Positions 20,548 to 63,801 of a stretch of DNA of 64,000 nt are shown piece by piece. Numbering within the stretch: the first letter of the stretch is position 1; each line of letters starts with the position of its first letter. Source of the DNA: a plasmid; the sequence record NZ_CP017041.1. One strand, given 5' to 3'. The position numbers and the translations under genes were made by a program. The notes beneath the pieces were generated by a model, which saw only the letters and a list, made by a program, of their open reading frames with translations, searched no databases and was not told where the DNA came from.

Positions 20548-21438
20548 TCAGGAGGCCGACCGGGATGGGCCCGGTGTTGACGGGCTGGGCGACACGGGTG
20601 TGCCGGCCAGGGGCAGAAGGCGTGACGGCTGGTCGAGGGCGGCGACCTCCCATCGGCCTGCACGGCTGACAAGGGTCAGGCCGTACTGGCTGGTCCGGGT
20701 GGTGGATTCGTCGCCGGTGGGCTGGCATGTCACGGTCACCGTGACGGTAATCTTCTGCCGGTCTGAGGGGGTGGGGACCTCGTCAGGTCCCACCACATGA
20801 GTGGTTTTCACTGATACGCATGGGGCTGGGTCAACCGCGGTGAAAGCGGTCCCTGGGCTGCTCCATCTCGACAGGTCGGTGCTTCCGGCCAGCATGGCGG
20901 TTAGGAAGCCTGAAGAGGTTTGGGCGGCCGGGTCGGCGGTGCGAAGCTCCGAGGTGTCTAGGGTGGGGGCCGAGGCCGGTGCAGGCATGGGGATCTGTCC
21001 AGGTAGACGCAAGGCGATGGCCTTGCCGTTGGAATCGACGTGGACCGGGACTGACCAGGCCTGTCCGCTCCCGGATTGACCGCCCATGGTGACCACGGTG
21101 ACCTGCCACAGGCTCGGGTCAGACGGGGAGACGGTGGCATCGGCGACGGTGACTGTGGTGGGGGCCGGGCCGGGTTTGCGGGGCAGTCGGGCGTCGGTGA
21201 TCTTGGCCGCCACCAGGTGCCCCAAGTTGTCCAGGTGCTCAGAGTCGGAGGTCAGCAGAAGAGTAGTCACCTCGACCGCGGTGGCTGAGGCGATCTGAGC
21301 TGTGCGGCGGTCGTGATGGGTGGTGTCAGTGCTGACAGCTGTGGTGGGAGCGGATGCCGGGGCCGCCGAACGGACCAGGGCAACGGGGCCGCATGCGACT
21401 CCGCACAGCACGAGGGCAAGGAAGCCTTTGGTGGCCAT
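20548..21438 (-). CDS. Secreted/lipoprotein of transfer module
   Basis: Start at MATKGFLALVLCGVACG (signal peptide with a lipobox-like LCGVAC). Thr/Pro-rich mature part. Confidence 0.4.
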   Translation of the reverse strand: MATKGFLALVLCGVACGPVALVRSAAPASAPTTAVSTDTTHHDRRTAQIASATAVEVTTLLLTSDSEHLDNLGHLVAAKITDARLPRKPGPAPTTVTVADATVSPSDPSLWQVTVVTMGGQSGSGQAWSVPVHVDSNGKAIALRLPGQIPMPAPASAPTLDTSELRTADPAAQTSSGFLTAMLAGSTDLSRWSSPGTAFTAVDPAPCVSVKTTHVVGPDEVPTPSDRQKITVTVTVTCQPTGDESTTRTSQYGLTLVSRAGRWEVAALDQPSRLLPLAGTPVSPSPSTPGPSRSAS

Positions 21439-21850
21439 CGATCCGGTGTGGGGCCAGGGACCCACGTTTTCCTGTGCCTGTTTTTTCTTGGCCGACCAGC
21501 GGCGGGACTTAGGGTTAGCGGATGCACCTTCTGGGGTGCATGCTCGTCTCAATCGCATCGGTCACCTCCTTCATTCACTGGATGAAGGGATGAAGGGAGT
21601 GGCCCATGTGCGGTCGAACCCGAAAAAGTTCAAACTTTTTTCTGGGTCTGCCTCAAGTACGACAGAAGGCCTGCATCATCACGGCGTTGTGGTAGCAGAT
21701 CTTGCGTCAGCGTAAATGTATGGGCCTCGTAGGAGTAGCTCTTAGGTGGGTCCCGGTGGTTGCGGCCAGGGCGAGGGTGTCGGGTATGTGTAGCGCTAGT
21801 CCCGGGTTCGTGGTGTGAGGGCTTTTGGGTGCTGACATGCACTACCCATT

Positions 21851-21887
21851 GCTAGACGCTGTGCTGTGGCATGGCTAGGCGTCTAGC
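21851..21887. promoter_or_regulatory. Palindrome GCTAGACGC-N19-GCGTCTAGC in the transfer-module/sigma intergenic region
   Basis: Perfect 9-bp inverted repeat arms at 21851-21859 and 21879-21887. CTAG-containing, like the repeats upstream of parA. Confidence 0.3.
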
Positions 21888-22385
21888 AGACGGGTTGACA
21901 TCACCTTTAGGCTGGCAGCATCCGAGGCCGCAGGCCAGAGGAATGCGGACAGCCTAACGATTGACGTCCCCCTCTTATTTCCTTCACCTCTTCCACTTTC
22001 TGGAGCTGGCACTCCCCTTGCTGATGTCAGCTTTTTCCTGGATGCCACGGTTGAGTCGACTACTCGAAGGTGGATCGATCCACCGATGTATCTGACTCTG
22101 GTTTTAGAGGCCATCCCCGCTACTTCTGAAGTCACCCCTTCTCCCCCGGCATGACAGGCGGCGCCCCACAGATTGACGACACTGCGGGGCTGCGGAGGTC
22201 TTCCAAGACTGTCGCCAGGGAAAGTGCGTGTCTGTCATCTCATCTTTTCCCGTCACATTTCCCCTTGTCAGAGCGGTTTTTGCAAAGTGACAACGTCAGG
22301 GGTCTTGACGACAACATCCTCGACAACATCGTGGCGGTGGTCTGTGTCTCGTCAGTTCAACGCACCGGGGAAAGAGGCACCGCTG

Positions 22386-23072
22386 ATGTTCACCACCACA
22401 AACACTCTCAACGATGAATGGGACCAGATTCGCGCCATCGAGATCGATTGGCATGACTGCCCCGAACTGATGCACTGCATCGACGTTGATGATGTGTTGG
22501 CCGTCATTCCTGCCGCCCCCGACGCCATCCTGGGCTACCTCATTACCCGAGCTCAGGGCGGTGACGAGTTGGCCACCCGCACTATCATCCAAGCGTTCAC
22601 AGGCAAGCTTATTTTGATGGCCACGGCCACCAAGGTGCGCCGTACTAATGACGGCTTCAATGATCTGCTGGCGGGGTTGTGGGAGACGATCATCACGTAC
22701 CCGTTGGATCGTCGCCCTGACAAGATCGCTGCGAACCTCACCCTCGACACGTTGCACCGGGTTACCCGGTTCTGGCGTGCTGATTCCCCCGATGAGGAAG
22801 AGGCTCACGGTCTGGTGCCCTTCCCTGACACTCTCATCGCCCCAGAGCCCGATGAGGACGTCACAGCTAGCCAGGCCATCGCCTTGGCGGTGGACCGCAA
22901 CTGGATTACCGAGGACCTAGCCCGCCTCATGAGCCATATTTACTGTGACGGTATGACTGGAGCTGATGCGGGTCGTCTGCATGGCTGCGCTCCAGCTACG
23001 GTGCGATCTCGATGCCGTGATGGTCGGGCCGTGTTGCAGCGCAACGCCGAGACGATCCTGGCCGTCTGCTGA
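22386..23072 (+). CDS. Sigma-70/ECF-like sigma factor (region 2-like core and C-terminal region 4 HTH)
   Basis: RBS GAAAGAGG before ATG 22386. C-terminal LARLMSHIYCDGMTGADAGRLHGCAPATVRSRCRDGRAVLQRN has the region-4 pattern. The ORF upstream of 22386 is unlikely to be coding. Confidence 0.45.
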   Translation: MFTTTNTLNDEWDQIRAIEIDWHDCPELMHCIDVDDVLAVIPAAPDAILGYLITRAQGGDELATRTIIQAFTGKLILMATATKVRRTNDGFNDLLAGLWETIITYPLDRRPDKIAANLTLDTLHRVTRFWRADSPDEEEAHGLVPFPDTLIAPEPDEDVTASQAIALAVDRNWITEDLARLMSHIYCDGMTGADAGRLHGCAPATVRSRCRDGRAVLQRNAETILAVC

Positions 23073-23814
23073 TCCCTCTCTTGCTCATGCCTGCCGCCAC
23101 CCTACCCCTACCTGCTAGAAACATAGCCATGTCTCCAGCAACGCATCTAGCATATTTTCTAGCAATTGATCTAGCTATGTATATAGCTGATGATCTAGCT
23201 ATCATATAGCTGTGTCTCCAGCCTATGGGTCACGTTTACTGTGACGGTATGACTGGAGCTGATGCGGGTCGTCTGCATGGCTGCGCTCCAGCTACGGTGC
23301 GATCTCGATGCCGTGATGGTCGGGCCGTGTTGCAGCGCAACGCCGAGACGATCCTGGCCGTCTGCTGATCCCTCTCTTGCTCATGCCTGCCGCCACCCTA
23401 CCCCTACCTGCTAGAAACATAGCCATGTCTCCAGCAACGCATCTAGCATATTTTCTAGCAATTGATCTAGCTATGTATATAGCTGATGATCTAGCTATCA
23501 TATAGCTGTGTCTCCAGCCTATGGGTCACGTTTACTGTGACGGTATGACTGGAGCTGATGCGGGTCGTCTGCATGGCTGCGCTCCAGCTACGGTGCGATC
23601 TCGATGCCGTGATGGTCGGGCCGTGTTGCAGCGCAACGCCGAGACGATCCTGGCCGTCTGCTGATCCCTCTCTTGCTCATGCCTGCCGCCACCCTACCCC
23701 TACCTGCTAGAAACATAGCCATGTCTCCAGCAACGCATCTAGCATATTTTCTAGCAATTGATCTAGCTATGTATATAGCTGATGATCTAGCTATCATATA
23801 GCTGTGTCTCCAGC
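22937..23814. repeat. Tandem direct repeat, about 296 bp x 3 (third copy slightly truncated)
   Basis: Identical 69-aa artifact ORFs recur at a 296-bp period (22996, 23292, 23588). Each unit = the last ~46 codons of the sigma-like gene + a Pro-rich spacer + an AT-rich CTAG-rich segment (tctagcatattttctagcaattgatctagctatgtatatagctgatgatctagctatcatatagctg). Confidence 0.85.
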
Positions 23815-23898
23815 CCAAATGACAGCCCAATGGCATGCTTGCCACAGGAAGGTGCGTCAGCCTCCCGAAATACTGGAAGGAGCTTTACCGTGCAGGAC

Positions 23899-24825
23899 AT
23901 GACCTCGACCAGACCGATTGACCGATCCCCGTTCGACCGCAGCATCGCGGTATGGAACCACAAAGGCGGCACGTTCAAGACGTCCGTCGTGGCGAACCTG
24001 GGATACCTGTTCGCCGCCGGTGGCAACAAGGTGCTGATGGTCGACATGGACCCCCAAGCCAATCTCGACATTGACTTCGGTATACCCGCGGGAGAACGTG
24101 AACGGGGCATGGGATTAGCCGAGGCGCTACGTGAGGGGACGGCCCTTCCCCCACCGCGTCATCTCAGCGAAAACCTTCACCTGGTCAGTGGCGGCCCGGC
24201 CCTCCACGAGTTCACCGACCCCGCCTCCCTAGCGGCCATCCTCGAGCGGGTCACTACCGCACGCTACGACCTGCTGGCCCAGGCCCTCGCACCGCTGGCC
24301 TGGGACTACGACCTTATCCTTATCGATTCCGGGCCGGCCCAGACTGTGCTGTCCCAGACCATCCTTGGAGTAGCCCGCTACCTGGTGGTGCCCACCCGCT
24401 CCGATAACGCCTCGATCACCGGGCTGGTCGGCGTTCAGGACGCCATCGATGAGGTCGCCGACTGCAACCCCGGCCTGAACCTGCTCGGTGTTGTGCTGGC
24501 TGGTGTGGGCACTCAGGCCACCCGGATCGGGGCCGATAAACGCAAGGCCATTGACACGGTCTTGGGGGAGGGGACCGTCTTCGAGGCGATCATCCACTAC
24601 TCCGAAAAAGTGGCCGTGCTCGCACGCCAGCAGGGTAAGACCGTCGCCGAGTTGGCTGGCGAATACCACCACACCCAGCCCGCCTACACCTACCTAGCCC
24701 AAGGCAAAAAGGTCCCCAACGTCGCTAAGGCGGCCGTCGCCATTGAAACCGACTACCTACGGTTGGCCACCGAAATCAGTGACCGCATGTTCGCCGGCGA
24801 CGAGCAGGAGTCCACTCATGACTGA
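23899..24825 (+). CDS. parA: ParA/Soj-family partition ATPase
   Basis: RBS GGAAGGAG. Deviant Walker A NHKGGTFKTS, DMDPQANL. Start at 23899 (MTSTRPIDR). Confidence 0.8.
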   Translation: MTSTRPIDRSPFDRSIAVWNHKGGTFKTSVVANLGYLFAAGGNKVLMVDMDPQANLDIDFGIPAGERERGMGLAEALREGTALPPPRHLSENLHLVSGGPALHEFTDPASLAAILERVTTARYDLLAQALAPLAWDYDLILIDSGPAQTVLSQTILGVARYLVVPTRSDNASITGLVGVQDAIDEVADCNPGLNLLGVVLAGVGTQATRIGADKRKAIDTVLGEGTVFEAIIHYSEKVAVLARQQGKTVAELAGEYHHTQPAYTYLAQGKKVPNVAKAAVAIETDYLRLATEISDRMFAGDEQESTHD

Positions 24826-25438
24826 CGATCCGACCCTGCCCGACCACACCTCCACCGAGGGCGACGACGCCGACACGCGCCTGGCTGAGGAGTGGACCAC
24901 CAGCGGCCGCAAAGTAGGCATCCTGCCCCAGCGTCAGCGACCCGGACGCTCCACAAAACCCGCTAAACAGACTCCTGTCTCGTCCCCTGCTCCTGCTGCA
25001 CCAGCACCAAGGAAAACCCCGGCGGCCACAACCACCCAGAATGAACGCCAGCGGATCAACGTCACCGTCTACGTTGTCCCCGAACTGGCCGCCGAGCTGC
25101 GCTCCCGGTCTGCGGCGACGGGGGTGACGGTCTCGGATCTGGTGGTGCAGGCTCTGGTTTTTGTGGCCGATCACGCGGGCGAGGCGGTCGCCGATGATGT
25201 TCGCGTCGACGCGGTTACTGGTGATGGGGGAGGGTTGTTCGATGTGACCCCGTCGCGGCCGACAGGTGTCGCTAAGACCCAGTTGGGGGTGCGGATGACC
25301 CGCCACAACAAGGACGGTTTGGACCAGCTGACCCAGATCAGTGGGGCCCGTGACCGTAGTCATCTTGTGTCCGTGGCCGTGCGCGACTATCTCGACTCTA
25401 ATCCTGTTCCTGTGAAGAAAGGCCACCATGTCCGCTGA
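24818..25438 (+). CDS. Partition-associated DNA-binding protein with two RHH-like segments (ParG-like)
   Basis: Overlaps the parA stop (ATGACTGA). Segments QRINVTVYVVPELAAELRSRSAATGVTVSDLVVQAL and TQLGVRMTRHNKDGLDQLTQISGARDRSHLVSVAVRDYL look like ribbon-helix-helix units. Confidence 0.45.
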   Translation: MTDDPTLPDHTSTEGDDADTRLAEEWTTSGRKVGILPQRQRPGRSTKPAKQTPVSSPAPAAPAPRKTPAATTTQNERQRINVTVYVVPELAAELRSRSAATGVTVSDLVVQALVFVADHAGEAVADDVRVDAVTGDGGGLFDVTPSRPTGVAKTQLGVRMTRHNKDGLDQLTQISGARDRSHLVSVAVRDYLDSNPVPVKKGHHVR

Positions 25439-26081
25439 TGAAACCCTGGCCGGGCGACACTTTGAAACGACTGTTAAGCCCAGGCGGCGTCCCGTGTTCG
25501 TCGCCGCCGGGATCGCCATCGTCGTGGTCGGTGCTCTGCTTATTGCCCAGTTGATTCACGCGGGTCAGACCGAGAATCGCGTGTTGGAGGTCCGTTCCGA
25601 TGTGGGGCGTGGCGAGGTGATTCGTGACACCGATCTGGTGGCGGTGACCGTTGGCCAGGTCGGCAACGTGTCAACGGTTCCCGCCGATCAGCTTGATGCC
25701 CTGGTCGGCAAGCGTGCCGCGGTGGATCTGCGTTCCGGGTCTTTGTTGTCTGCCGGGGCTATTGGGGCGGCCGACACTGTTCCAGCCCCGGGTAAGTCGC
25801 TGGTTGGGTTGAAGCTGGCCCCCGGGCAGGTTCCTATCGGGGATCTGACCGCCGGGGCGAAACTGCGTCTGATCCAGACGTCGGCCCTCAACGGGTCGGC
25901 CACCGCGACCGACGCCGCCAATACCAATGGTCAGTCGTGGGATGCGACGATGGCGGCCAGCACCAAGGGCACCGATCAGGTCACTTTGGTCAATGTGGAG
26001 GTGAAATCGGGTGAGGCGGCCCGGATCGCCCAGCTGACCTCCCAGGGCCGTATCGCTGTGGTGAAGGACTCGAGCCGGTGA
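25428..26081 (+). CDS. cpaB: Flp pilus assembly protein CpaB/RcpC-like
   Basis: N-terminal TM. SAF/CpaB-like region (VIRDTDLVAVTVGQVGNVSTVPADQLDALVGKRAAVDLRSGSLL). First gene of a tad-type operon. Confidence 0.6.
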   Translation: MSADETLAGRHFETTVKPRRRPVFVAAGIAIVVVGALLIAQLIHAGQTENRVLEVRSDVGRGEVIRDTDLVAVTVGQVGNVSTVPADQLDALVGKRAAVDLRSGSLLSAGAIGAADTVPAPGKSLVGLKLAPGQVPIGDLTAGAKLRLIQTSALNGSATATDAANTNGQSWDATMAASTKGTDQVTLVNVEVKSGEAARIAQLTSQGRIAVVKDSSR

Positions 26082-26896
26082 GCACCATCGTTGTAACCAG
26101 TGTCTCGGGAGCCCCTGGGGTGACCACGACGGCGATTGGGTTGGGCCGGGTGTGGCCACAGTCCAGTCTGGTCGTCGAGGACGATACTCATCACGCCATG
26201 CTGGCGGGCTATCTGCGAGCCGGTCAGCATGCCGAGCCGAATCTGGCTACGGTGGCGAGCTTGACGTCGACTCCGACTAACGCCCAAACGGTGTGGGAAT
26301 CCATTGCCAGGCCCCTGCCCACCGATGATCCGGTCAGCGGGCTGCGGCGCAAGGTTATCCTCGGCCCACCTACCCCGTGGTCTCGCGCGGGTATCGACCC
26401 TAGGTGGGGCTTCATGTTGGGGTTGTGGCGGCGGCTGGAGGAGGCTGGTATTGACACCATCATCGACTTGGGCCGCCTGGCCACGCCGCTGACGTCGACC
26501 CCGCAGCTGATCGCCGCCCCCATTGTCGAGGACGCCGACATGATCTTGGTGATGATCGAGGCGAGGCTACGAGACGTAGCCGGCGCTCACACGATGGTCG
26601 AGGGGCTAGCCGAGCAGATGAATCTGGCCGGGGCCCACCAGCGCCTCGGGTTGCTGGTTCACCGTGGCGGGGCGGCCCGCGGAGTCCCCGAGTTCACTGA
26701 CAGGGAGATCACTTCGGCGTTGAAACTGCCGGTGTGCGGGTCGATAGTCCATGACCCGGTCGGGGCCGCCCAGCTGTCCGATGGTGTGGGGCAGCGGTTC
26801 GACAGGTCGCGTCTGGGCAGATCGTTGTCGAAGGTGGCGGCTGGCCTGGTTGAGGACATTGACAAGCGCCGTGCTGAGGGCAAGGAGGATCTGTGA
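26078..26896 (+). CDS. tadZ: TadZ/CpaE-like ParA/MinD-related pilus assembly protein
   Basis: Degenerate P-loop (VTSVSGAPGVTTTAIGLG). Position between cpaB and tadA. Confidence 0.55.
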   Translation: MSTIVVTSVSGAPGVTTTAIGLGRVWPQSSLVVEDDTHHAMLAGYLRAGQHAEPNLATVASLTSTPTNAQTVWESIARPLPTDDPVSGLRRKVILGPPTPWSRAGIDPRWGFMLGLWRRLEEAGIDTIIDLGRLATPLTSTPQLIAAPIVEDADMILVMIEARLRDVAGAHTMVEGLAEQMNLAGAHQRLGLLVHRGGAARGVPEFTDREITSALKLPVCGSIVHDPVGAAQLSDGVGQRFDRSRLGRSLSKVAAGLVEDIDKRRAEGKEDL

Positions 26897-28437
26897 TGGC
26901 CAGTTTTTCTGACAATCCGTTCGACAAGTTGCGTTCCCGTCTTGATGTTGGGGTGTCGTCGGCGACGTCGATGGCCGGGCACATAGATGCAGGGGAGTCC
27001 TCAGTGGGGCAGGAGTCCTCTCCCAGGTTTGCCTCGGAGTTGTTTTCGACGTCGTCGGGGTGGACCAGTTCCCAGCAGGTGACTCAGACTTCCCCGGTGA
27101 TGACCCGTTCGGAGAAGGTCGATTGGTCTGTTGTTGCGGAACTGGCTAGTACGGCCACGGATGAGATTGAGACCGAGATCACCCGGTGGAGTGCTACTCA
27201 TGAGGGCCTGGCGACGTTGGACATGCGCCAGGCCATCGCCGAACCTGCTATCGCGTCGGCGGTAGCCACCTACGCTGACCGGCGTCAGATCGACGTAGGG
27301 GAGACCTGGCCTGACCTGGTACGTCAGGGCTACCGCAAGGCCGTGTGGGATCAGTTGTTCGGGATGGGGCGGTTGCAGCCGCTGTTCGAAATCAGCGACG
27401 CCGAAAACATCGTCGTAGTGGGTAATCACGAGGTGATCGTCGATCACAACGATGGTTCCCGGTCGACGTTGCCGCCGGTGGCTGATTCGGATGCCGAGTT
27501 GGAATCCCAGATCGCCCGAATGGCGAGGAATGCGACCCCGCGGCGTGCCTTCGACGCCGACCATACTGATGTGACGATCATGCACCAGCAGAAATTCCGC
27601 ATCCACGCGATCTCTGCGGAAGTGTCGTTACAGCCATCGGTGGTGATCCGCCAGCATTTGCTGACCCACATCAGCCTGGGGGATCTGTCCCAGCGCGGAA
27701 TGATGCCGCTGGAGGTGGCCCGGTTCCTGGACCAGGCGGTGCAAGCCGGCAAGTCCATCGTGGTCGCCGGTGAGCAGGGTGCAGGCAAGACAACATTTCT
27801 GCGGGCACTCATCCACGCCATCCCGATGCGGGAACGATTTGCCACCCTGGAGACCGATCAGGAGTTGTTCGCTCATCTGATGCCAGGCCGACAGAACACG
27901 CTGGTGCTGTTCGCCCGTGACGGTAACGGCGAGATTGATCCAGCCACCGGAACCCAGCATGGCGCCATCGAGATTGCCCAGCTCATTCCGCCTAGTCTGC
28001 GCCAAGCGTTGACCCGGGTCATCGTCGGTGAGGTGCGCGGCAACGAGGCTTCGGCCATGTTTCAGGCCATGCAGTCGGGTACGGGCACCATGAGTAGCAT
28101 TCATTCTCCGCGGGCCTCGGAGGTGCCATCTCGACTGGCCCAGATGATTTCGATGGGCCCGGTCTACAATTTGGATCAGGCCATGCTCCAGATCGGTCAT
28201 TCGATCGACTACATCGTCTTCGTGCGTCGGCGTGACCTGCCTGACGGGACCCGGCTGCGGTTCGTTGAGCAGATCCGGTCAGTCTCGCCTGGCGATGCGA
28301 CAACTCCCAGTCTCGGCGAGGTGTACACGGCCGATGCGTGGACCGGTCAGCCGTTGACCCCGCTCATGCCCGGATCGGCCGCCGACGAGCTGTCTCACTT
28401 CGCCCGCGACTTGGATTACTGCGAGGCCCACTCATGA
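26893..28437 (+). CDS. tadA: TadA/CpaF secretion ATPase (type II/IV secretion NTPase family)
   Basis: Walker A VVAGEQGAGKTTFLRAL. VirB11/CpaF-like His box region IVGEVRGNEA. Confidence 0.85.
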   Translation: MMASFSDNPFDKLRSRLDVGVSSATSMAGHIDAGESSVGQESSPRFASELFSTSSGWTSSQQVTQTSPVMTRSEKVDWSVVAELASTATDEIETEITRWSATHEGLATLDMRQAIAEPAIASAVATYADRRQIDVGETWPDLVRQGYRKAVWDQLFGMGRLQPLFEISDAENIVVVGNHEVIVDHNDGSRSTLPPVADSDAELESQIARMARNATPRRAFDADHTDVTIMHQQKFRIHAISAEVSLQPSVVIRQHLLTHISLGDLSQRGMMPLEVARFLDQAVQAGKSIVVAGEQGAGKTTFLRALIHAIPMRERFATLETDQELFAHLMPGRQNTLVLFARDGNGEIDPATGTQHGAIEIAQLIPPSLRQALTRVIVGEVRGNEASAMFQAMQSGTGTMSSIHSPRASEVPSRLAQMISMGPVYNLDQAMLQIGHSIDYIVFVRRRDLPDGTRLRFVEQIRSVSPGDATTPSLGEVYTADAWTGQPLTPLMPGSAADELSHFARDLDYCEAHS

Positions 28438-40352: not shown

Positions 40353-41903
40353 ATGACCGCTTTAATTCAAGCTCTGCCGACAGCTGAACTGTCTGCTGGA
40401 CCTGGTGCTAGCAGTCCAGCTAGACCCTCTGCTGAGGGCTTCATCAAGATTCATCACGACCTCATTAGTGCGGGCGTGTCGGGTAACGCGATGGCGTTGT
40501 TCGTCGCGTTACGTAACCAGCCCGGCTGTGATCAGTGGACCCGTCACTCGTACCTGCGGCTAGCCCAATGGTGCGGCTGGGATGGGCTGTCGGAGGCGGC
40601 GGGCTGTAAGCGGGTGCAGCGGGCCGCTGCTGAGCTCGCTAGCGGTGGTTGGCTGGAATCGCGGGTCGGCCATGATCGTCGCACCGCTAAGACGCTGGTG
40701 TGGCATCGGTTGACCAGCCCCGACACCGACCGCTGGGAGCAATTGCCGCGGATTGTGTGGGCGAGGATCTGCCAGATCGCCGGGGAGACGTCGGGAGAGT
40801 GGGTGAGGCATTGGCTGGTGTGGCGGATGCTGGCCGGTCGTACTGGTGTGGCTCAGGCCCCTACGTCCATCGTGGCCCGGTTCCTGGGCTGTTCTTCGCG
40901 CCAGGTCTCTCATATCCGTGGGGCTCTCGTTGATGCCGGTCTGCTCGGCTGTGACGAGGTGTCGGGGGCGGCGAGCCGGGTGTGGTTCCCCTCGATGGCC
41001 GAGGAGTGTGCAGCGGATCGTGAGGTGGTCGATGGGGCCGTCGTCGGTGCTGGGGTGGGCTCTGGTGAAGGTGTCGAGGAGGGCGGGGAACCCCTGTCGA
41101 TTTTGTCCACCCACCCCTGTCGATTTTGTCCACCCACCCCTGTCGATTTTGTCCGCCAAGTATTAGACAAACCATTAGACAGTGAATTAGACCTTGGGTC
41201 GCGTCAGCGTGTTAGCTCACCAACGCGCGCGCGCGCGGCGGCCGAGCCGCCGAAGCCAAAGAAACCCATACCACCAACGCCTGAACCAGCAGCCCCCGCT
41301 TCAGACAGTCCTGTGTCAGCGCACGCTGATGAGGCTGCCGAGTTGGCGTGGCGGTTCGTGGGGTGGTGTCCTCAGCTGGTAGGGGCACCGAAGAAGGTGC
41401 GTGGCCAGCTCCGTCAGATGGTTGCCAAGCAGATCCGTCTCCATCGTGCCTGGCTGGATGTGCCGGCGTTGACTGTTGCCGCTGAGCGAGTCCGGGAAAT
41501 CGGGGCGCTGGGTGATCGGCACTGCGAGATCGTTCGAGACGAGCTGCATGGCGTGATTGCCGACCGCAAGGCAGCCCCCCCAGCCCCCTCACCCTCACCA
41601 GACGAAGGAGACACGACTGTGTGGATTTACAAAGACCCTCATGAGACTCTTGACGAGTTTGCGGCCAGGACTGAGCCCTCTCGTGTGTGGGAGGTCTCCG
41701 AGCGCGATGACATGGCTGGCGGGATCGCCGTGAACTTGCTGGCGGCTAAGCCGGATGATCCGATGGGCTGGCTGACTCGCCGGCAAACCATGCTGATGGT
41801 CCGGTTCCCCCAAGCCGTCGACGAGGTCGTAGAGATGTGTCACATCGTGCGTACCGCCTTGGAGGCCGACATGGCCGCCGGAACCCGGTGGGAGGACCGA
41901 TGA
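40353..41903 (+). CDS. Replication-initiator-like protein (N-terminal winged-helix region), ORF reads through an iteron array
   Basis: N-terminal half resembles wHTH Rep proteins. 3 x 24-bp iterons lie inside the ORF at 41090-41161. May be two genes or a Rep with an internal origin. Confidence 0.35.
   Translation: MTALIQALPTAELSAGPGASSPARPSAEGFIKIHHDLISAGVSGNAMALFVALRNQPGCDQWTRHSYLRLAQWCGWDGLSEAAGCKRVQRAAAELASGGWLESRVGHDRRTAKTLVWHRLTSPDTDRWEQLPRIVWARICQIAGETSGEWVRHWLVWRMLAGRTGVAQAPTSIVARFLGCSSRQVSHIRGALVDAGLLGCDEVSGAASRVWFPSMAEECAADREVVDGAVVGAGVGSGEGVEEGGEPLSILSTHPCRFCPPTPVDFVRQVLDKPLDSELDLGSRQRVSSPTRARAAAEPPKPKKPIPPTPEPAAPASDSPVSAHADEAAELAWRFVGWCPQLVGAPKKVRGQLRQMVAKQIRLHRAWLDVPALTVAAERVREIGALGDRHCEIVRDELHGVIADRKAAPPAPSPSPDEGDTTVWIYKDPHETLDEFAARTEPSRVWEVSERDDMAGGIAVNLLAAKPDDPMGWLTRRQTMLMVRFPQAVDEVVEMCHIVRTALEADMAAGTRWEDR
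41090..41161. repeat. Iterons: 3 tandem copies of cccctgtcgattttgtccaccca (third variant ...tccgccaag), followed by ttagaca/ttagacc short repeats to about 41195
   Basis: Exact 24-bp period visible in the sequence. Confidence 0.75.
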
Positions 41904-42661
41904 GGTCACTGCGGCGAAACATCATGGTTGTGGCTGGTGTGCTCGGCGTCGCGGTAGCGGCGGGCCCGACCTTAGCCAGGTCGTTGCCGTTTGCCGACAG
42001 GTCTCAGCCGCCGACGACCAGAAATGCCACCCAGGCGGCCGCAACCGGTGCAACGGCTGCGGCGGGCGCGCTCAACCGTCTGCCAGTCAAAGGCAAAGCA
42101 GCGATGACCGGATACACCCGGACCCAATTCGGGCAGGCGTGGACCGATGACACCGACCGGGAGTTGACCCGCCCCTGGGGCCACAACGGATGCGACACCC
42201 GCAACGATGCCCTTGCCCGCGACCTGGTCGAGGCCCACCTGAAACCCGGATCACGATGCGTGGTCGTCTCCGGGCGACTCCACGACCCCTACACCGGGTC
42301 CACACTCGCCTGGCGGCGCGGCCGGCACACCTCGACAACAGTCCAAATCGACCACGTCGTAGCCCTCGGGAACGCGTGGATTACCGGCGCGCAAAAACTC
42401 TCACCGCTGCAACGCACCGCCCTGGCCAACGACCCGTTGAACTTGCTGGCTGTCGACGGACCCGCTAATGAGGCCAAACGAGACAGGGATGCAGCGACCT
42501 GGCTACCCCCTAACAAGGCCTACAGATGCGACTATGTGGCCCGCCAAATCGCCGTCAAAATGAAGTACCAGCTGTGGGTCACCGCCGCAGAGAAGACCGC
42601 TATGGCGCGGGTATTGCACCGCTGCCCGACCCAGACACTCCCTGTAGGAGCCACACGATGA
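41898..42661 (+). CDS. Secreted His-Me finger/HNH-like nuclease (DUF1524-like)
   Basis: Signal/TM MRSLRRNIMVVAGVLGVAVAAG. Motif IDHVVALGNAW...N...NLLAVDGPANEAKRD. Confidence 0.45.
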
Positions 42662-45388: not shown

Positions 45389-45469
45389 GAGACACGCCCT
45401 AGACCCATTGACCCCTATCAACCCTGTTAGTACTGTCAGAGTCAATAGTATCAACCCAAGGAGGAACCC

Positions 45470-45640
45470 ATGAGCTACATCACCCGCACCGGAAACCTGG
45501 CCGGCGCCCCCGAGCTGCGCGAGGGAGAGCGTGGCCCGTACACCTACGCCCGCGTCATCGTGTCCGACCGCATCCGCCAGGAGGACGGCAGCTACACCGA
45601 CGGACCGGCGGCAGCCGATTCGTCGGCACCGCGCCCCTGA
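45470..45640 (+). pseudogene. ssb: Truncated ssb-like gene (56 aa N-terminal fragment)
   Basis: RBS AAGGAGG. MSYITRTGNLAGAPELRE...YTYARV resembles the SSB N-terminus (GNL..DPELR). Flanked by palindromic GTCAATAGTA / TACTATTGAC motifs. Confidence 0.4.
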
Positions 45641-45671
45641 CAGTACTATTGACACTATTGGAGGTATCACC

Positions 45672-46470
45672 GTGACCGCTCAAATCTTCGCCCTCTGCAA
45701 CCAGAAGGGCGGCGTCGGCAAGTCGACGACGACATTTCACCTGGCCCGCGCCGCGGTGCTGCGCGGCCAGCGCGTGCTTGTGGTCGACAACGATCCCCAG
45801 GGGAACCTGACGTCCGTCGCGGCCGCCGAGCCCGTCGGGGAAGACCAGGCAGGACTGGCCGACGCGCTCAGTGCGCGCGCGCCCGAGACCATCCGCGACG
45901 TGATCGTGCCGGGAGTCTGGCCCGGCCTCGACGTCGTGCCGACGTCGGGAGTCACGCTCGGCTACGTGCGCGACGAGACTCGTGATCGCCGGGGCCGGCC
46001 GAGAGGGCCGGCTGCGCGAGGTCCTGGCCGCCGTCGCTGGCGACTACGACGTGATCCTGATCGACTGCGCACCGAGCCTGGACCAGCTCACGATCAACGG
46101 CCTAACGGCCGCGCAGGGCGTCGTCGTTGTGACCCACTCGAAGCTGTGGAGCGCGAATGGCTTGGCGCAGCTGCTCGACACGATCGAGAGCGTGCGCGCC
46201 TACTACAACCCCGAGCTGTGCGTGGCGGGCATCATCGTCAACCAGCACGAGGAGAACACCGTCAGCGGAAAGACCTGGCTCGGCGAGCTGGCCCAGGCCG
46301 CCGAGTCCCGAGGGCTGAGCGTGCTCAGCCCTCCGATCCCGAAGCGCGTCGTCATCGCAGACGCCACCGAGGCCGCGCGCGGCCTCGACGAGTGGGGGAG
46401 TGCCGAGGCGACCGCACTCGGCCAGCTTTACGCCGACCACCTGACCAGTATCGAAGGAGTCCTGTCATGA
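45672..46470 (+). pseudogene. parA: parA with apparent frameshift near 45965-45985
   Basis: N-terminal part in one frame (GTG start, CNQKGGVGKSTT). C-terminal part (GDYDVILIDCAPSLDQLTINGL...) in another frame (ORF 45982..46470). Confidence 0.6.
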
Positions 46471-46844
46471 ACCGCCCATCCCCCCGCAAGTCCTCACTGA
46501 GCGGATCGAGCCCGGTCGCCCCGCCGCCGGCAGAGACGCCCGAGACGAAGCCGACACCGGCCGCGCCCGTCACGCGCAAGGCCGAGGAACCGTCGACGAG
46601 CGGCAAGAAGAAGTGGCGGCACAAGGTGTCGTTCTACCAGGACCCGGCCGACACCGACCGGGTGCGAGGAGCGATCCTGCACACGATGGTGCAAGAGGGC
46701 AACCGGAACCTGAGCCAGTTCGTCAACGACGCCGTGATGGCCAAGGTCGAGGAGCTGGAAGCCAAGTACAACCACGGCGAGCCCTTCCCCGCCGTGGGAG
46801 CCCGAGAGCTGCCCCAGGGCGGCGCGGCCGCCGCTGGCGAGTAA
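46467..46844 (+). CDS. ParG-like RHH partition protein
   Basis: Overlaps the parA stop. KKWRHKVSFYQDPADTDRVRGAILHT RHH-like segment. Confidence 0.5.
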   Translation: MNRPSPRKSSLSGSSPVAPPPAETPETKPTPAAPVTRKAEEPSTSGKKKWRHKVSFYQDPADTDRVRGAILHTMVQEGNRNLSQFVNDAVMAKVEELEAKYNHGEPFPAVGARELPQGGAAAAGE

Positions 46845-46850
46845 GAACCC

Positions 46851-47300
46851 ATGAAGGCGCGCGCCATCGCCACAGTGGCCCTGCTGGGCCTGCTGGCCGG
46901 GTGCGCACCGAGCACGTCGGCCGCCTCGACGGCGACCGTCACCGTCGGTACCCGCCAGTTCCAGGTGGAGGTCGCAGACACCGCGGACGAGCAACGAACC
47001 GGACTCAGCGGACGAGCCGAGGTGCCTGAGGGCACCGGAATGCTGTTCACGTTCGCCGGCCGCCAGGAGCGGCAGGTGTGGATGGCCGGCATGCAGACCC
47101 GGATCGACGCGGCATGGATCGTCGATGACCAGGTGCTCGCCGTCGAGACCCTGGACCCGTGCACGATGACCGATCAGAGCATGTGCCCGCGCTGGACGTC
47201 GCCTGGCGACGTCGACGCACTGCTGGAAGTCCCCGCCGGCGCACTCGAAGGTGTGCCGGTCGGAGAGACCGTCACCATCCGAGAGGACACCCCATCATGA
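46851..47300 (+). CDS. DUF192-family lipoprotein
   Basis: Lipobox LLAGC. FQVEVADTADEQRTGLSGR...GMLFTF...VWMAGMQTRIDAAWIVDDQVL pattern of DUF192/COG1430. Confidence 0.5.
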   Translation: MKARAIATVALLGLLAGCAPSTSAASTATVTVGTRQFQVEVADTADEQRTGLSGRAEVPEGTGMLFTFAGRQERQVWMAGMQTRIDAAWIVDDQVLAVETLDPCTMTDQSMCPRWTSPGDVDALLEVPAGALEGVPVGETVTIREDTPS

Positions 47301-62313: not shown

Positions 62314-63284
62314 AGGGTGTGTCTCCTATATGTGAGGTGAGGGTCGCGAGATACTGGCGGGGTGAATGAGAAGTCTCGGTTTGAGGCGATGACGGATGAG
62401 CAGTGGGAGCGTGTGGAGCCCCTGTTGCCAACGAACTGTGGGCGTCGGGGTCGCCCGTTCTCGAATAGTCGGATGATCGTCAACGGGATCATCTACCGCT
62501 ACAGGACGGGGATTCCTTGGAGAGACCTGCCTCGTGAGAGGTATGGGCCGTGGCAGACGGTGTGGAAGCGTCACCGCTCCTACGCGAGGCGGGGCGTGTG
62601 GGATTGTGTCCTTTTTCAGGTGGTGGCCCAAGCGGATTCGGCTGGGAAAGTGGATTGGACGGTCAGCATTGACGCCACGATCAACCGTGCCCACCAACAC
62701 GCCACGAACACGACGCGCCCCGACCAGGACACGGGGGGCTTCATCGAACTACAAGAATTCTCCGCTGGGCGAGGATGAGCCTGCAGGTCACGGCATTGGA
62801 CGCTCGCGCGGGGGGGTTGACCACGAAGATCCACCAGGTCGTGGACGGCAACGGGCGTCCCTTGGCCATGGTCGTCACTGGAGGCCAGCGCAACGACGGC
62901 GCGATGATGCAGGACACCTTGAAGGACATCTACGTCCCCAGGCCCACCGGCAGGCCCCGCACCACACCCGACACGGTCATGGCGGACCGGGGCTACACGT
63001 CGGGCGTGAACCGTGAATACCTTCGAGATCACCACGTCAAGGCAGTGATCCCCCAGAAGAAGAACGAGATCGCCTCCCGGAAGAAGAAGGGCTCCAAGGG
63101 AGGCCATCCACCCGCCTTTGACGCAGAGGCATACAAGGGACGAAACGTCGTGGAACGCTCCTTCAACAGCGTCAAACAGTGGCGTGGTCTGGCCACCAGG
63201 TACGACAAGCTTGCCGTCACCTACAGGTCAGCCACAGTCCTACACGCCATCCTCCAATGGCTCCAAATATAGGAGACACGCCCT
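62314..63284 (+). mobile_element. IS5-family (IS427-group) insertion sequence, copy 2 (identical to copy 1, same orientation)
   Basis: Identical ORF translations and identical terminal repeats. orfA 62362..62778, orfB 62775..63272. Confidence 0.8.
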
Positions 63285-63801
63285 GGCTACGGCCTTAGCC
63301 GCTCAGTACCGGGTCGTCTTGCTTGACGCCGACCCGCAAGGATCGGCGACGTCATGGGCTACCGACGCTTTCGAAGCCGGTGACCAGTTGGACTTCGAGG
63401 TCCGCCCGGCTAATGCCCCCATTGTCAGGCGCTGCCGTGACATCGACGCCGACCTCGTCATCATCGACACTCCCCCCGGTGACTCTCAGACGATTACCGC
63501 AGCCCTCGACGTCGCCGATGTGGTCATCATCCCGACCGAGTCGGGGGACCTGGACATGGATCGAGCGCTAATGACCTATCAGGTGGCCCACGGCACGCGC
63601 CGGGCCCTGCTCTTCAACAAAGCCGATCGGACCAGGCAATACCGTGACGCCCACGACGGAGCCGCCGCCGTAGAGGGCCTCGACATTCTCGACGCGGAAG
63701 TTCATCGGCGGGTCGCCTATCGGCAAGCCATCGGAACCCGGCCAACAGATCTAGGAGAATTCGCCCAGGTTGCCGACCAGATCAAGGAGATGCTGAAGTG
63801 A
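63285..63801 (+). pseudogene. parA: 3' portion of the parA gene interrupted at 44429 (ATALAAQYRVVLLDADPQGS...EMLK)
   Basis: Joining 44365..44429 to 63285.. reconstitutes a continuous ParA ORF (...TTTAVYL|ATALAAQ...). Confidence 0.65.

Follow-up and report, generated by a model that had tools for sequence, protein, structure and literature searches.

In this work we analysed a 64,000-nucleotide stretch of plasmid DNA (sequence record NZ_CP017041.1; called here the window), in which a segment lying directly upstream of a parA gene, and including the end of a sigma-factor gene, is repeated head to tail in three copies. The copy number of this segment differs among near-identical plasmids, and the junction between copies points firmly, at the sequence level, to one founding illegitimate duplication that joined the end of an array of short boxes to codon 182 of the sigma-factor gene. 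With a probability that we put at about 0.6, these observations reflect a recent and still-fluctuating amplification of an operator and/or centromere array bound by a ribbon–helix–helix (RHH) protein, in which two small open reading frames (ORFs) would be passengers.

By its sequence relationships the window is a Cutibacterium tad/conjugative plasmid. Megablast against plasmids returned matches to Cutibacterium plasmids only, and a phage collection searched with the window region gave no match. Positions 1-39619 are collinear with plasmid pKB17-24694 of C. modestum (AP024748.1), at 99.4-99.6% identity; over the region studied here identity is 94-95% with the C. acnes plasmids of HL096PA1 (NC_021086), pTP-CU411 and CP012356, and 82% with p11-79. 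These relatives are the plasmids of C. acnes that encode tad (Flp) pili (PMC5696575), and pTP-CU411 is described as a transferable linear plasmid that carries erm(X) (PMC9119108). Individual related loci are designated below by numbers preceded by L.

The tandem array and its phased boxes

The features of the array and of the gene that enters it are as follows.

22386..23072, + strand: divergent ECF-type (extracytoplasmic function) sigma-factor gene, predicted, 228 aa, intact (family profile, AlphaFold2 (AF2) model, Foldseek)
22939-23234 and 23235-23530 (296 bp each) and 23531-23815 (285 bp), + strand: tandem array, the third unit without the 11-nt junction
23122..23223, no strand: box array of unit 1, nine boxes (coordinates from copy 3 minus 592)
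23418..23519, no strand: box array of unit 2, nine boxes (obtained as for unit 1)
23714..23833, no strand: box array of unit 3 and an unduplicated tenth box (from the AGC phasing)
23224..23234 and again 23520-23530, + strand: junction filler TATGGGTCACG, 11 nt (alignment and flanks of each copy)
23225..23368, + strand: mini-ORF 1, 47 aa, truncated sigma-4 (MGHVYCDG...AVC; ORF list)
23521..23664, + strand: mini-ORF 2, identical to mini-ORF 1 (ORF list)

An earlier note, made from the sequence alone, had placed three copies of a 296-bp unit at 22937..23814. Tandem Repeats Finder and a self-comparison at a lag of 296 both confirm the triplication; the array is indeed there, but the ends given were off by 1-2 nt. 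The program reports 22939..23815, a period of 296, 3.0 copies (2.96), 100% matches, 0 indels and a score of 1754, and the self-comparison gives an unbroken 581-nt match of 22939..23519 with 23235..23815. The note had named differences between aligned units as evidence against a triplication; the 285-nt cores of the three copies show none, the copies being 100% identical. Each 296-bp unit carries the end of the sigma-factor gene and nine of the ten boxes of a phased array. The sigma tail had been estimated at about 46 codons per unit; it is present, but what is shared with the full gene is the last 43 codons and the stop, and the last 134 nt of the gene form the start of unit 1. Because the right breakpoint falls after box 9, the tenth box was not duplicated and stands once, after the last unit.

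The boxes are built on a YAGC core, with T(C/A)TAGC as consensus. In the last unit and the tenth box after it, AGC occurs at 23717, 23729, 23741, 23753, 23765, 23777, 23789, 23800, 23812 and 23824, so that all ten AGC between 23690 and 23840 are in 12-bp phase (seven exactly, then one 11-nt step and three more), and none of 20000 shuffles reached seven AGC in phase. Read in the 12-nt register the boxes are CATAGC, TCCAGC, TCTAGC three times, TATAGC, TCTAGC, (T)ATAGC, CCAGC and ACAGC; each array also contains two 24-bp repeats, each with a dyad AGCTAT-N3/4-ATAGCT. The low-GC segment of CTAGC/ATAGCT repeats noticed earlier is real: its GC content is 0.35-0.40 vs 0.64 for the window, and the three arrays hold 12 of the 18 TCTAGC and six of the seven TATAGC of the window. 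Rfam gave no matches in 21400-24000.

Comparison with relatives suggests that it is the boxes that are kept. In lineages at 82% DNA and 77% protein identity the spacers have diverged, but the (T)AGC cores and their 12-bp spacing are maintained. In a lineage at 45% protein identity (L014-L017), boxes of the type GTTAG/GCTAG (TAGY) occur upstream of parA at 11-bp spacing. All plasmids of the CTAGC type have the same first beta-strand, RQRINVTVYV, in their RHH protein, and L014, of the GTTAG type, has a different one. This apparent covariation of box and beta-strand, which involves two groups only, is a weak but consistent indication that the two interact.

Downstream of the boxes lie the following features.

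23834..23889, + strand: parA leader, whose Shine-Dalgarno sequence, GGAAGGAG, is strong and lies 7 nt upstream of the GTG (conserved in the alignment)
23890..24825, + strand: ParA/Soj-type Walker ATPase, 311 aa, GTG start (Pfam, matches to solved structures)
24818..25438, + strand: RHH protein, 206 aa, overlapping the parA stop by 8 nt (Pfam RHH_3)
25428-26081, + strand: SAF/CpaB-like gene (overlapping stop/start)
26078-26896, + strand: degenerate ParA/MinD-like gene, probably TadZ-like (overlapping stop/start)
26893-28437, + strand: CpaF/TadA ATPase gene (T2SSE; overlapping stop/start)

The parA–RHH pair that the earlier note saw directly downstream of the array is thus present. ParA has a deviant Walker A motif, KGGTFKTS, within its first 30 residues and no N-terminal helix–turn–helix (HTH) domain; it matches Pfam AAA_31 (1.8e-23, from residue 17) and CbiA (3.5e-14), and its best match among solved structures is delta of pSM19035 (2oze_A, 7.3e-17), followed by Soj. 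The RHH protein scores 22.1-23.9 bits against RHH_3 (cut-off 21.6), with the RHH at residues 79-113 following a Pro/Thr/Ala-rich, probably disordered N-terminus. By eye, a second strand–helix–helix can be seen at residues ~150-195 (TQLGVRMTRHNKDGLDQLTQISGARDRSHLVSVAVRDYL), for which there was no Pfam detection and no solved-structure match; the protein could be a tandem, single-chain RHH. A hairpin sequestering the Shine-Dalgarno sequence of the parA leader was considered and dropped, as the leader folds no better than shuffled sequences (z = 0.03). The overlaps from parA to the CpaF gene make this one apparent operon, translationally coupled, and the order sigma, parA, RHH, SAF, TadZ-like, CpaF is kept down to relatives at 45% protein identity.

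An HTH-less Walker ParA, an RHH protein encoded directly downstream and repeats upstream (here ten phased YAGC boxes) are the hallmarks of a type Ib partition cassette, although at 206 aa the RHH protein is larger than typical members. The closest known counterpart is the delta/omega system of the Streptococcus pyogenes plasmid pSM19035 (type Ib), in which omega is an RHH protein binding arrays of short repeats that are both operators and centromeres. The two systems have in common the HTH-less Walker ParA, the RHH partner and short contiguous repeat arrays upstream of promoters at more than one plasmid site. They differ in that pSM19035 has contiguous 7-bp heptads and a 71-aa omega, whereas here boxes of ~6 bp are in 12-bp phase, the operon runs into tad genes, binding by the RHH protein is predicted, and the array is multiple because it was recently duplicated in tandem, not because sites are dispersed over the plasmid. 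Two other type Ib systems, ParF/ParG/parH of TP228 and ParA/ParB of pCXC100, also share the order repeats, parA, RHH gene, and a flexible N-terminal tail on the RHH protein, but their sequences are unrelated, and the C-terminal domain of the pCXC100 ParB (PF18064) is found in another par cassette of the window, not in this one.

A related box lies on the other side of the sigma-factor gene.

21850..21888, no strand: perfect 10-nt inverted repeat TGCTAGACGC-N19-GCGTCTAGCA with a TCTAGCA box (repeat search)

This inverted repeat precedes the sigma-factor gene, in an intergenic region of 830 bp, and the pair TTGCTAGACG...CGTCTAGCA is kept in all CTAGC-type relatives (L002, L003, L004, L018, L019, L024 and L027). 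It is a possible second operator, and the occurrence of the same box upstream of both suggests that the sigma-factor gene and the par–tad operon may be under one common regulator. In type II-like relatives a protein of 429-484 aa is encoded divergently upstream of the sigma-factor gene (L004 238-1608, L019 1446-2825, L024 88-1542); in p11-79 (L004) its annotation is CopG family, and in the other loci it shows only a faint RHH_1 match. It is another candidate binder of CTAG boxes in those plasmids.

These data bear on whether the boxes have a role in segregation at all. They might act only on transcription of the tad pilus/conjugation operon, as operator or promoter elements to which the RHH protein binds or which the adjacent sigma factor reads. 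The translational coupling of parA and the RHH gene to the tad genes, their conserved synteny, the second conserved CTAG-box pair upstream of the sigma-factor gene, as expected for a regulon, and the other par cassettes of the plasmid would fit such a role. We nevertheless find it doubtful that this is the whole explanation, because in the type Ib architecture found here (HTH-less Walker ParA, downstream RHH, upstream repeats) the operator is the centromere, and because the best structural relative of ParA is delta of pSM19035. The operator and centromere roles are not mutually exclusive. The proposal that the array is centromere-like (parS) therefore holds in so far as this is a phased array of the type Ib centromere/operator kind, but the array may be chiefly the par–tad operator.

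The junction between units and copy number in related plasmids

The filler TATGGGTCACG is found solely at the two internal junctions and is absent from single-copy plasmids. A simple duplication would have joined ...CTCCAGCC to (C)TCATGAGCCATATTTAC, whereas ...CTCCAGCC-TATGGGTCACG-TTTAC is found; CCAGCCTATGGGTCACG is a k-mer of the junction. The filler is homologous to the native flank CATGAGCCATA, from which it differs by transitions only, and it encodes M-G-H-V where the native gene encodes M-S-H-I. Sigma alleles vary at the changed positions (S, R or T at the first, I or V at the other), and CAC-GTN is present in the L018 allele. Five to six changes in 12 nt beside 285 nt with none cannot be drift after the duplication, hence the junction looks like a scrap of a different, unsampled sigma allele; it possibly arose by unequal exchange between plasmids, or by later replacement of the upstream gene by recombination.

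Searches for a native sigma allele with the junction codons (ATGGGTCACGTT / M-G-H-V) gave a single match in metagenome contigs, which was another two-copy array, no match in GTDB genomes with either the exact or the degenerate pattern, and none in viral contigs; MGHV was found in none of the seven sigma protein clusters. The window holds no other copy of TATGGGTCACG that could have been a template-switch donor. Deaminase-type hypermutation was considered as a cause of the all-transition pattern and rejected, as the changes go both ways (A to G, T to C, C to T).

Copy number was compared among contigs whose upstream protein, of 228 aa, is identical to that of the window. One unit is present in L008, L011 and L012; two are present in pKB17-24694 (AP024748; L001/L007), L005, L009 and L010 (GCA_004793845.1); at least two are present in L006, where a run of N interrupts the repeat; and the window is the only one of the plasmids compared to have three. 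A metagenome contig found by the junction pattern, L013, which includes only the 3' part of the upstream gene, also has two units. Beyond this set, the C. acnes plasmids, including pTP-CU411, have one unit and p11-79 has one diverged equivalent; for the C. acnes allele P0001, 24 contigs were examined and the four distinct arrangements shown are all single-unit. Single-copy versions were thus found in homologous plasmids, as the earlier note had predicted.

The same junction occurs in every multi-copy array, which implies descent from one founding duplication. At unit position 218 either T or C is found, the same in all units of an array but not in all plasmids, in one- and two-copy forms alike; the two copies of L009 differ at unit position 264. 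This pattern is that expected from repeated unequal exchange and contraction between identical units. It resembles variable-number tandem repeats (VNTRs) and other duplications driven by RecA or slippage, with identical head-to-tail units, a founder junction, varying copy number and homogenised variants; the difference lies in the 11-nt junction, which is like another allele and which a clean microhomology join would not give.

In a separate observation, the 285-nt unit 22939-23223 is ~99% identical to the C. acnes plasmids L002/L003 (1-3 differences), in surroundings of 2.7 kb that are ~94% identical and with a sigma protein at 91%. This mosaic of identities suggests recombination between plasmid lineages in exactly this 285-nt segment.

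Could the third copy, or the whole multi-copy state, be an artefact of assembly, the true plasmid having one unit? Three copies are seen in the window only, and the L006 scaffold breaks within the repeat at a run of N, which shows that this region is difficult for assemblers. However, the junction, which a single-copy template cannot yield, is present in at least six independent assemblies (different samples and pipelines), AP024748 among them, and the difference at position 264 indicates that the two copies of L009 are separate copies and not an echo of the assembler. The usual error of assemblers with tandem repeats, moreover, is to collapse them, not to expand them. An artefact is unlikely for the duplication, and we regard this explanation on the whole as quite improbable.

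Amplification of the array and its place on the plasmid

We propose that, after the founding event, units were gained and lost through unequal homologous recombination, or replication slippage, between identical copies. The relevant part of what is amplified would be the 12-bp-phased T(C/A)TAGC boxes, to which the RHH protein, the product of the second gene downstream, would bind. Three units would offer 28 boxes in three clusters vs 10 in one. The sigma-factor gene stays intact. The array would serve as promoter–operator of the parA–RHH–tad operon and/or as centromere of a type Ib (delta/omega-like) partition cassette. We infer the promoter in the array, the binding of the boxes by the RHH protein and the segregation of the plasmid by the cassette. 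The earlier note had called the amplification unusual, which is an overstatement: it is an expected kind of variation at an expected kind of site, real but fairly ordinary, and would be a neutral-to-mildly-consequential copy-number polymorphism.

Several points weigh against this proposal. ParA scores 60.2 bits against the NCBIfam family ParA_partition (NF041546), whose cut-off is 180, and is a member of the ParA/MinD superfamily and not a ParA_partition equivalog. In relatives this parA is always linked to tad genes, and could serve pilus biology and not partition. The plasmid carries at least one other par locus, so that the parA–RHH pair is not necessarily its main partition system; a third ParA-like ORF lies at 63118-63801, and in p11-79 the small parA that adjoins the annotated replication protein is elsewhere from this locus. 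A scan of the array for consensus sigma-70 promoters, not tuned to actinobacteria, found nothing. The 11-nt junction is not derivable from either flank by simple duplication, a third copy is known from one plasmid, and in the literature we found no published description of this repeat, of the par region, or of the regulation or segregation of these plasmids.

The other par locus is the following.

45674-46844: second par cassette, parA2 and a PF18064 ParB (parA2 frameshifted)

The product of parA2 (GTG at ~45674) is ParA-like over ~100 residues, up to a frame shift near 45975-45985 (...GACGAGACTCGTGATC...), and resumes as ORF 45982-46470 (VILIDCAPSL...); either parA2 is a pseudogene or the sequence is in error here. 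It is followed at about 46.5-46.84 kb by an RHH ParB of the PF18064 (pCXC100) type. By eye, a small ORF just upstream of parA2 is seen to lie among copies of the motif TGACAGTACT / AGTACTGTCA and repeats like TCAATAGTAT / ACTATTGACACTATTGG, at 45425-45665; these are possibly the centromere/operator of this second cassette.

A replication origin with the phased repeats as its iterons, in which amplification would multiply origin or incompatibility determinants, is very unlikely. The low GC content of the segment (0.35-0.40) and its numerous direct repeats would suit an origin, and we found no mapped origin in the literature on these plasmids. On the other hand, there is no adjacent rep gene, the neighbours being the sigma-factor gene and parA; the sole annotated replication protein of the family, that of p11-79, is encoded elsewhere, beside another parA, and tblastn with it gave no match in the window; the boxes, 6 bp at 12-bp spacing, are shorter than typical iterons, which are 17-22 bp; and the position upstream of parA and the RHH gene, together with the covariation of the RHH beta-strand, better fits a par operator.

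The remainder of the window differs from its closest relative. Positions 39600-64000, ~24 kb, are not in pKB17-24694 and hold different cargo, with a GmrSD_C nuclease-domain protein (41837-42661), a DUF192 gene (46851-47300) and arsenic/cadmium resistance-type genes; 57996-59967 matches, at 96.6% identity, part of a Microbacterium sp. plasmid that carries a cadmium transporter, a recombinase and ArsR.

The upstream sigma-factor gene and the mini-ORFs

Taken alone, the protein encoded upstream of the array falls below the Pfam and NCBIfam thresholds for sigma factors: it scores 14.2 bits against Sigma70_r4_2 (Pfam cut-off 25.7) and has no Sigma70_r2 match. An exhaustive profile search finds a family of 983 representatives, and cluster P0001 bears the name 'RNA polymerase sigma factor' in one source. 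The family profile and the AF2 model were built from a 75-member alignment (a 5-sequence alignment gave a predicted local distance difference test score, pLDDT, of only 38). The profile matches sigma-4 of Mycobacterium tuberculosis SigL (3hug_A, 2.1e-7) and SigL 6dv9_F over residues 37-173 (2.7e-6), and 34 of the 75 members match Pfam Sigma70_r4_2 (E <= 0.01). The model has a pLDDT of 91.6, its top Foldseek matches are all sigma factors, mostly ECF (sigma-E, AlgU, SigE, BldN, SigL, SigH, SigK, SigW), and it separately matches the isolated domains sigma-2 (2map, TMt 0.61) and sigma-4 (2h27, TMt 0.69). Model and profile thus agree on sigma-2 and sigma-4 domains joined by a linker, as in an ECF sigma factor, and the earlier note was right in calling the gene sigma-like. 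Its product is predicted to be a divergent sigma factor of the ECF type that is extended at its N-terminus. It is like other ECF (group 4) sigma factors in its two-domain sigma-2/sigma-4 fold and in its profile matches to SigL, SigD and SigE structures, but unlike them in the extension, of ~45 residues, in its scores below the Pfam and NCBIfam thresholds and in that no anti-sigma gene is evident beside it.

Around this gene, an exact direct repeat CGACAACATC occurs twice, 12 nt apart, at 22309-22330, ~60 nt upstream of the start, and a TcpC-like conjugation gene (20548-21558) lies further upstream, in the place taken in type II-like relatives by the gene for the 429-484-aa protein. A sigma-70 promoter and terminator scan predicted no terminator after the sigma-factor gene.

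Since the left breakpoint is inside the sigma-factor gene, the duplication created two 47-aa reading frames (MGHVYCDGMTGADAGR), whose ATG lies inside the junction. They share with the full gene (22386..23072) the last 43 codons and the stop, and only the first four codons, M-G-H-V vs M-S-H-I, differ. Two ORFs with an in-frame ATG do exist, as had been noted, but this ATG is the homologue of native Met182 and not a new start. In the AF2 model the sigma-4 helices span residues 161-170, 176-187, 192-199 and 203-219, which puts Met182 inside the second of them: the peptide keeps the helix–turn–helix and the C-terminal helix, but helix 1 and half of helix 2 are lost. The earlier description of free-standing region-4 HTH peptides accordingly does not hold, the domain being incomplete. 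Sub-threshold matches remain, to Sigma70_r4_2 (E = 0.006) and SigM (E = 5e-4).

Signals for expression were sought around these ORFs. No Shine-Dalgarno sequence is present in the 15 nt that precede the ATG (TGTGTCTCCAGCCT), whereas parA has GGAAGGAG, and positions -12 to -7, where a leaderless start would have a -10-like hexamer, read TGTCTC and not TANNNT. The gene index holds no mini-ORF product, though several indexed contigs carry the junction, and no gene is called between the sigma-factor gene and parA in the two-copy contigs. The mini-ORFs are probably inert by-products, passengers of a breakpoint that fell inside a gene. As no terminator is predicted after the sigma-factor gene, there may be low-level translation from read-through RNA.

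Two explanations would give the peptides a function. In the first, the 296-bp unit would be a reversible contingency locus, in which array size tunes RHH repression of the par–tad operon and/or partition and incompatibility between co-resident Cutibacterium plasmids, and the truncated sigma-4 peptide, made from internal promoters, dampens the plasmid sigma factor; we consider this very improbable. That the peptides are adaptive decoys or anti-activators, competing with full-length sigma for -35 elements or for the beta-flap of RNA polymerase, is extremely unlikely: the ORFs are intact, start with ATG, retain the HTH recognition helix and the sub-threshold region 4 matches, differ from the native protein at two amino acids in the four junction codons and could be carried on read-through mRNA, but half of helix 2 and all of helix 1 are missing, neither a Shine-Dalgarno sequence nor a -10-like hexamer precedes them, they are never called as genes in indexed contigs, and one- and two-copy plasmids with identical genes coexist, as for a neutral by-product. 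In short, we found nothing that supports the decoy HTH domain proposed in the earlier note.

In conclusion, the observations support a model in which the amplified element is the array of phased boxes upstream of parA. Plasmids of this family spread between Cutibacterium species on human skin, and they encode Flp/tad pili (PMC5696575). This work provides a candidate cis-site, the phased T(C/A)TAGC boxes, and a candidate binder, the RHH protein. The occurrence of one, two or three arrays in otherwise near-identical plasmids constitutes a natural allelic series, which would be usable for measuring the effects of array dosage on plasmid stability, incompatibility and tad expression.

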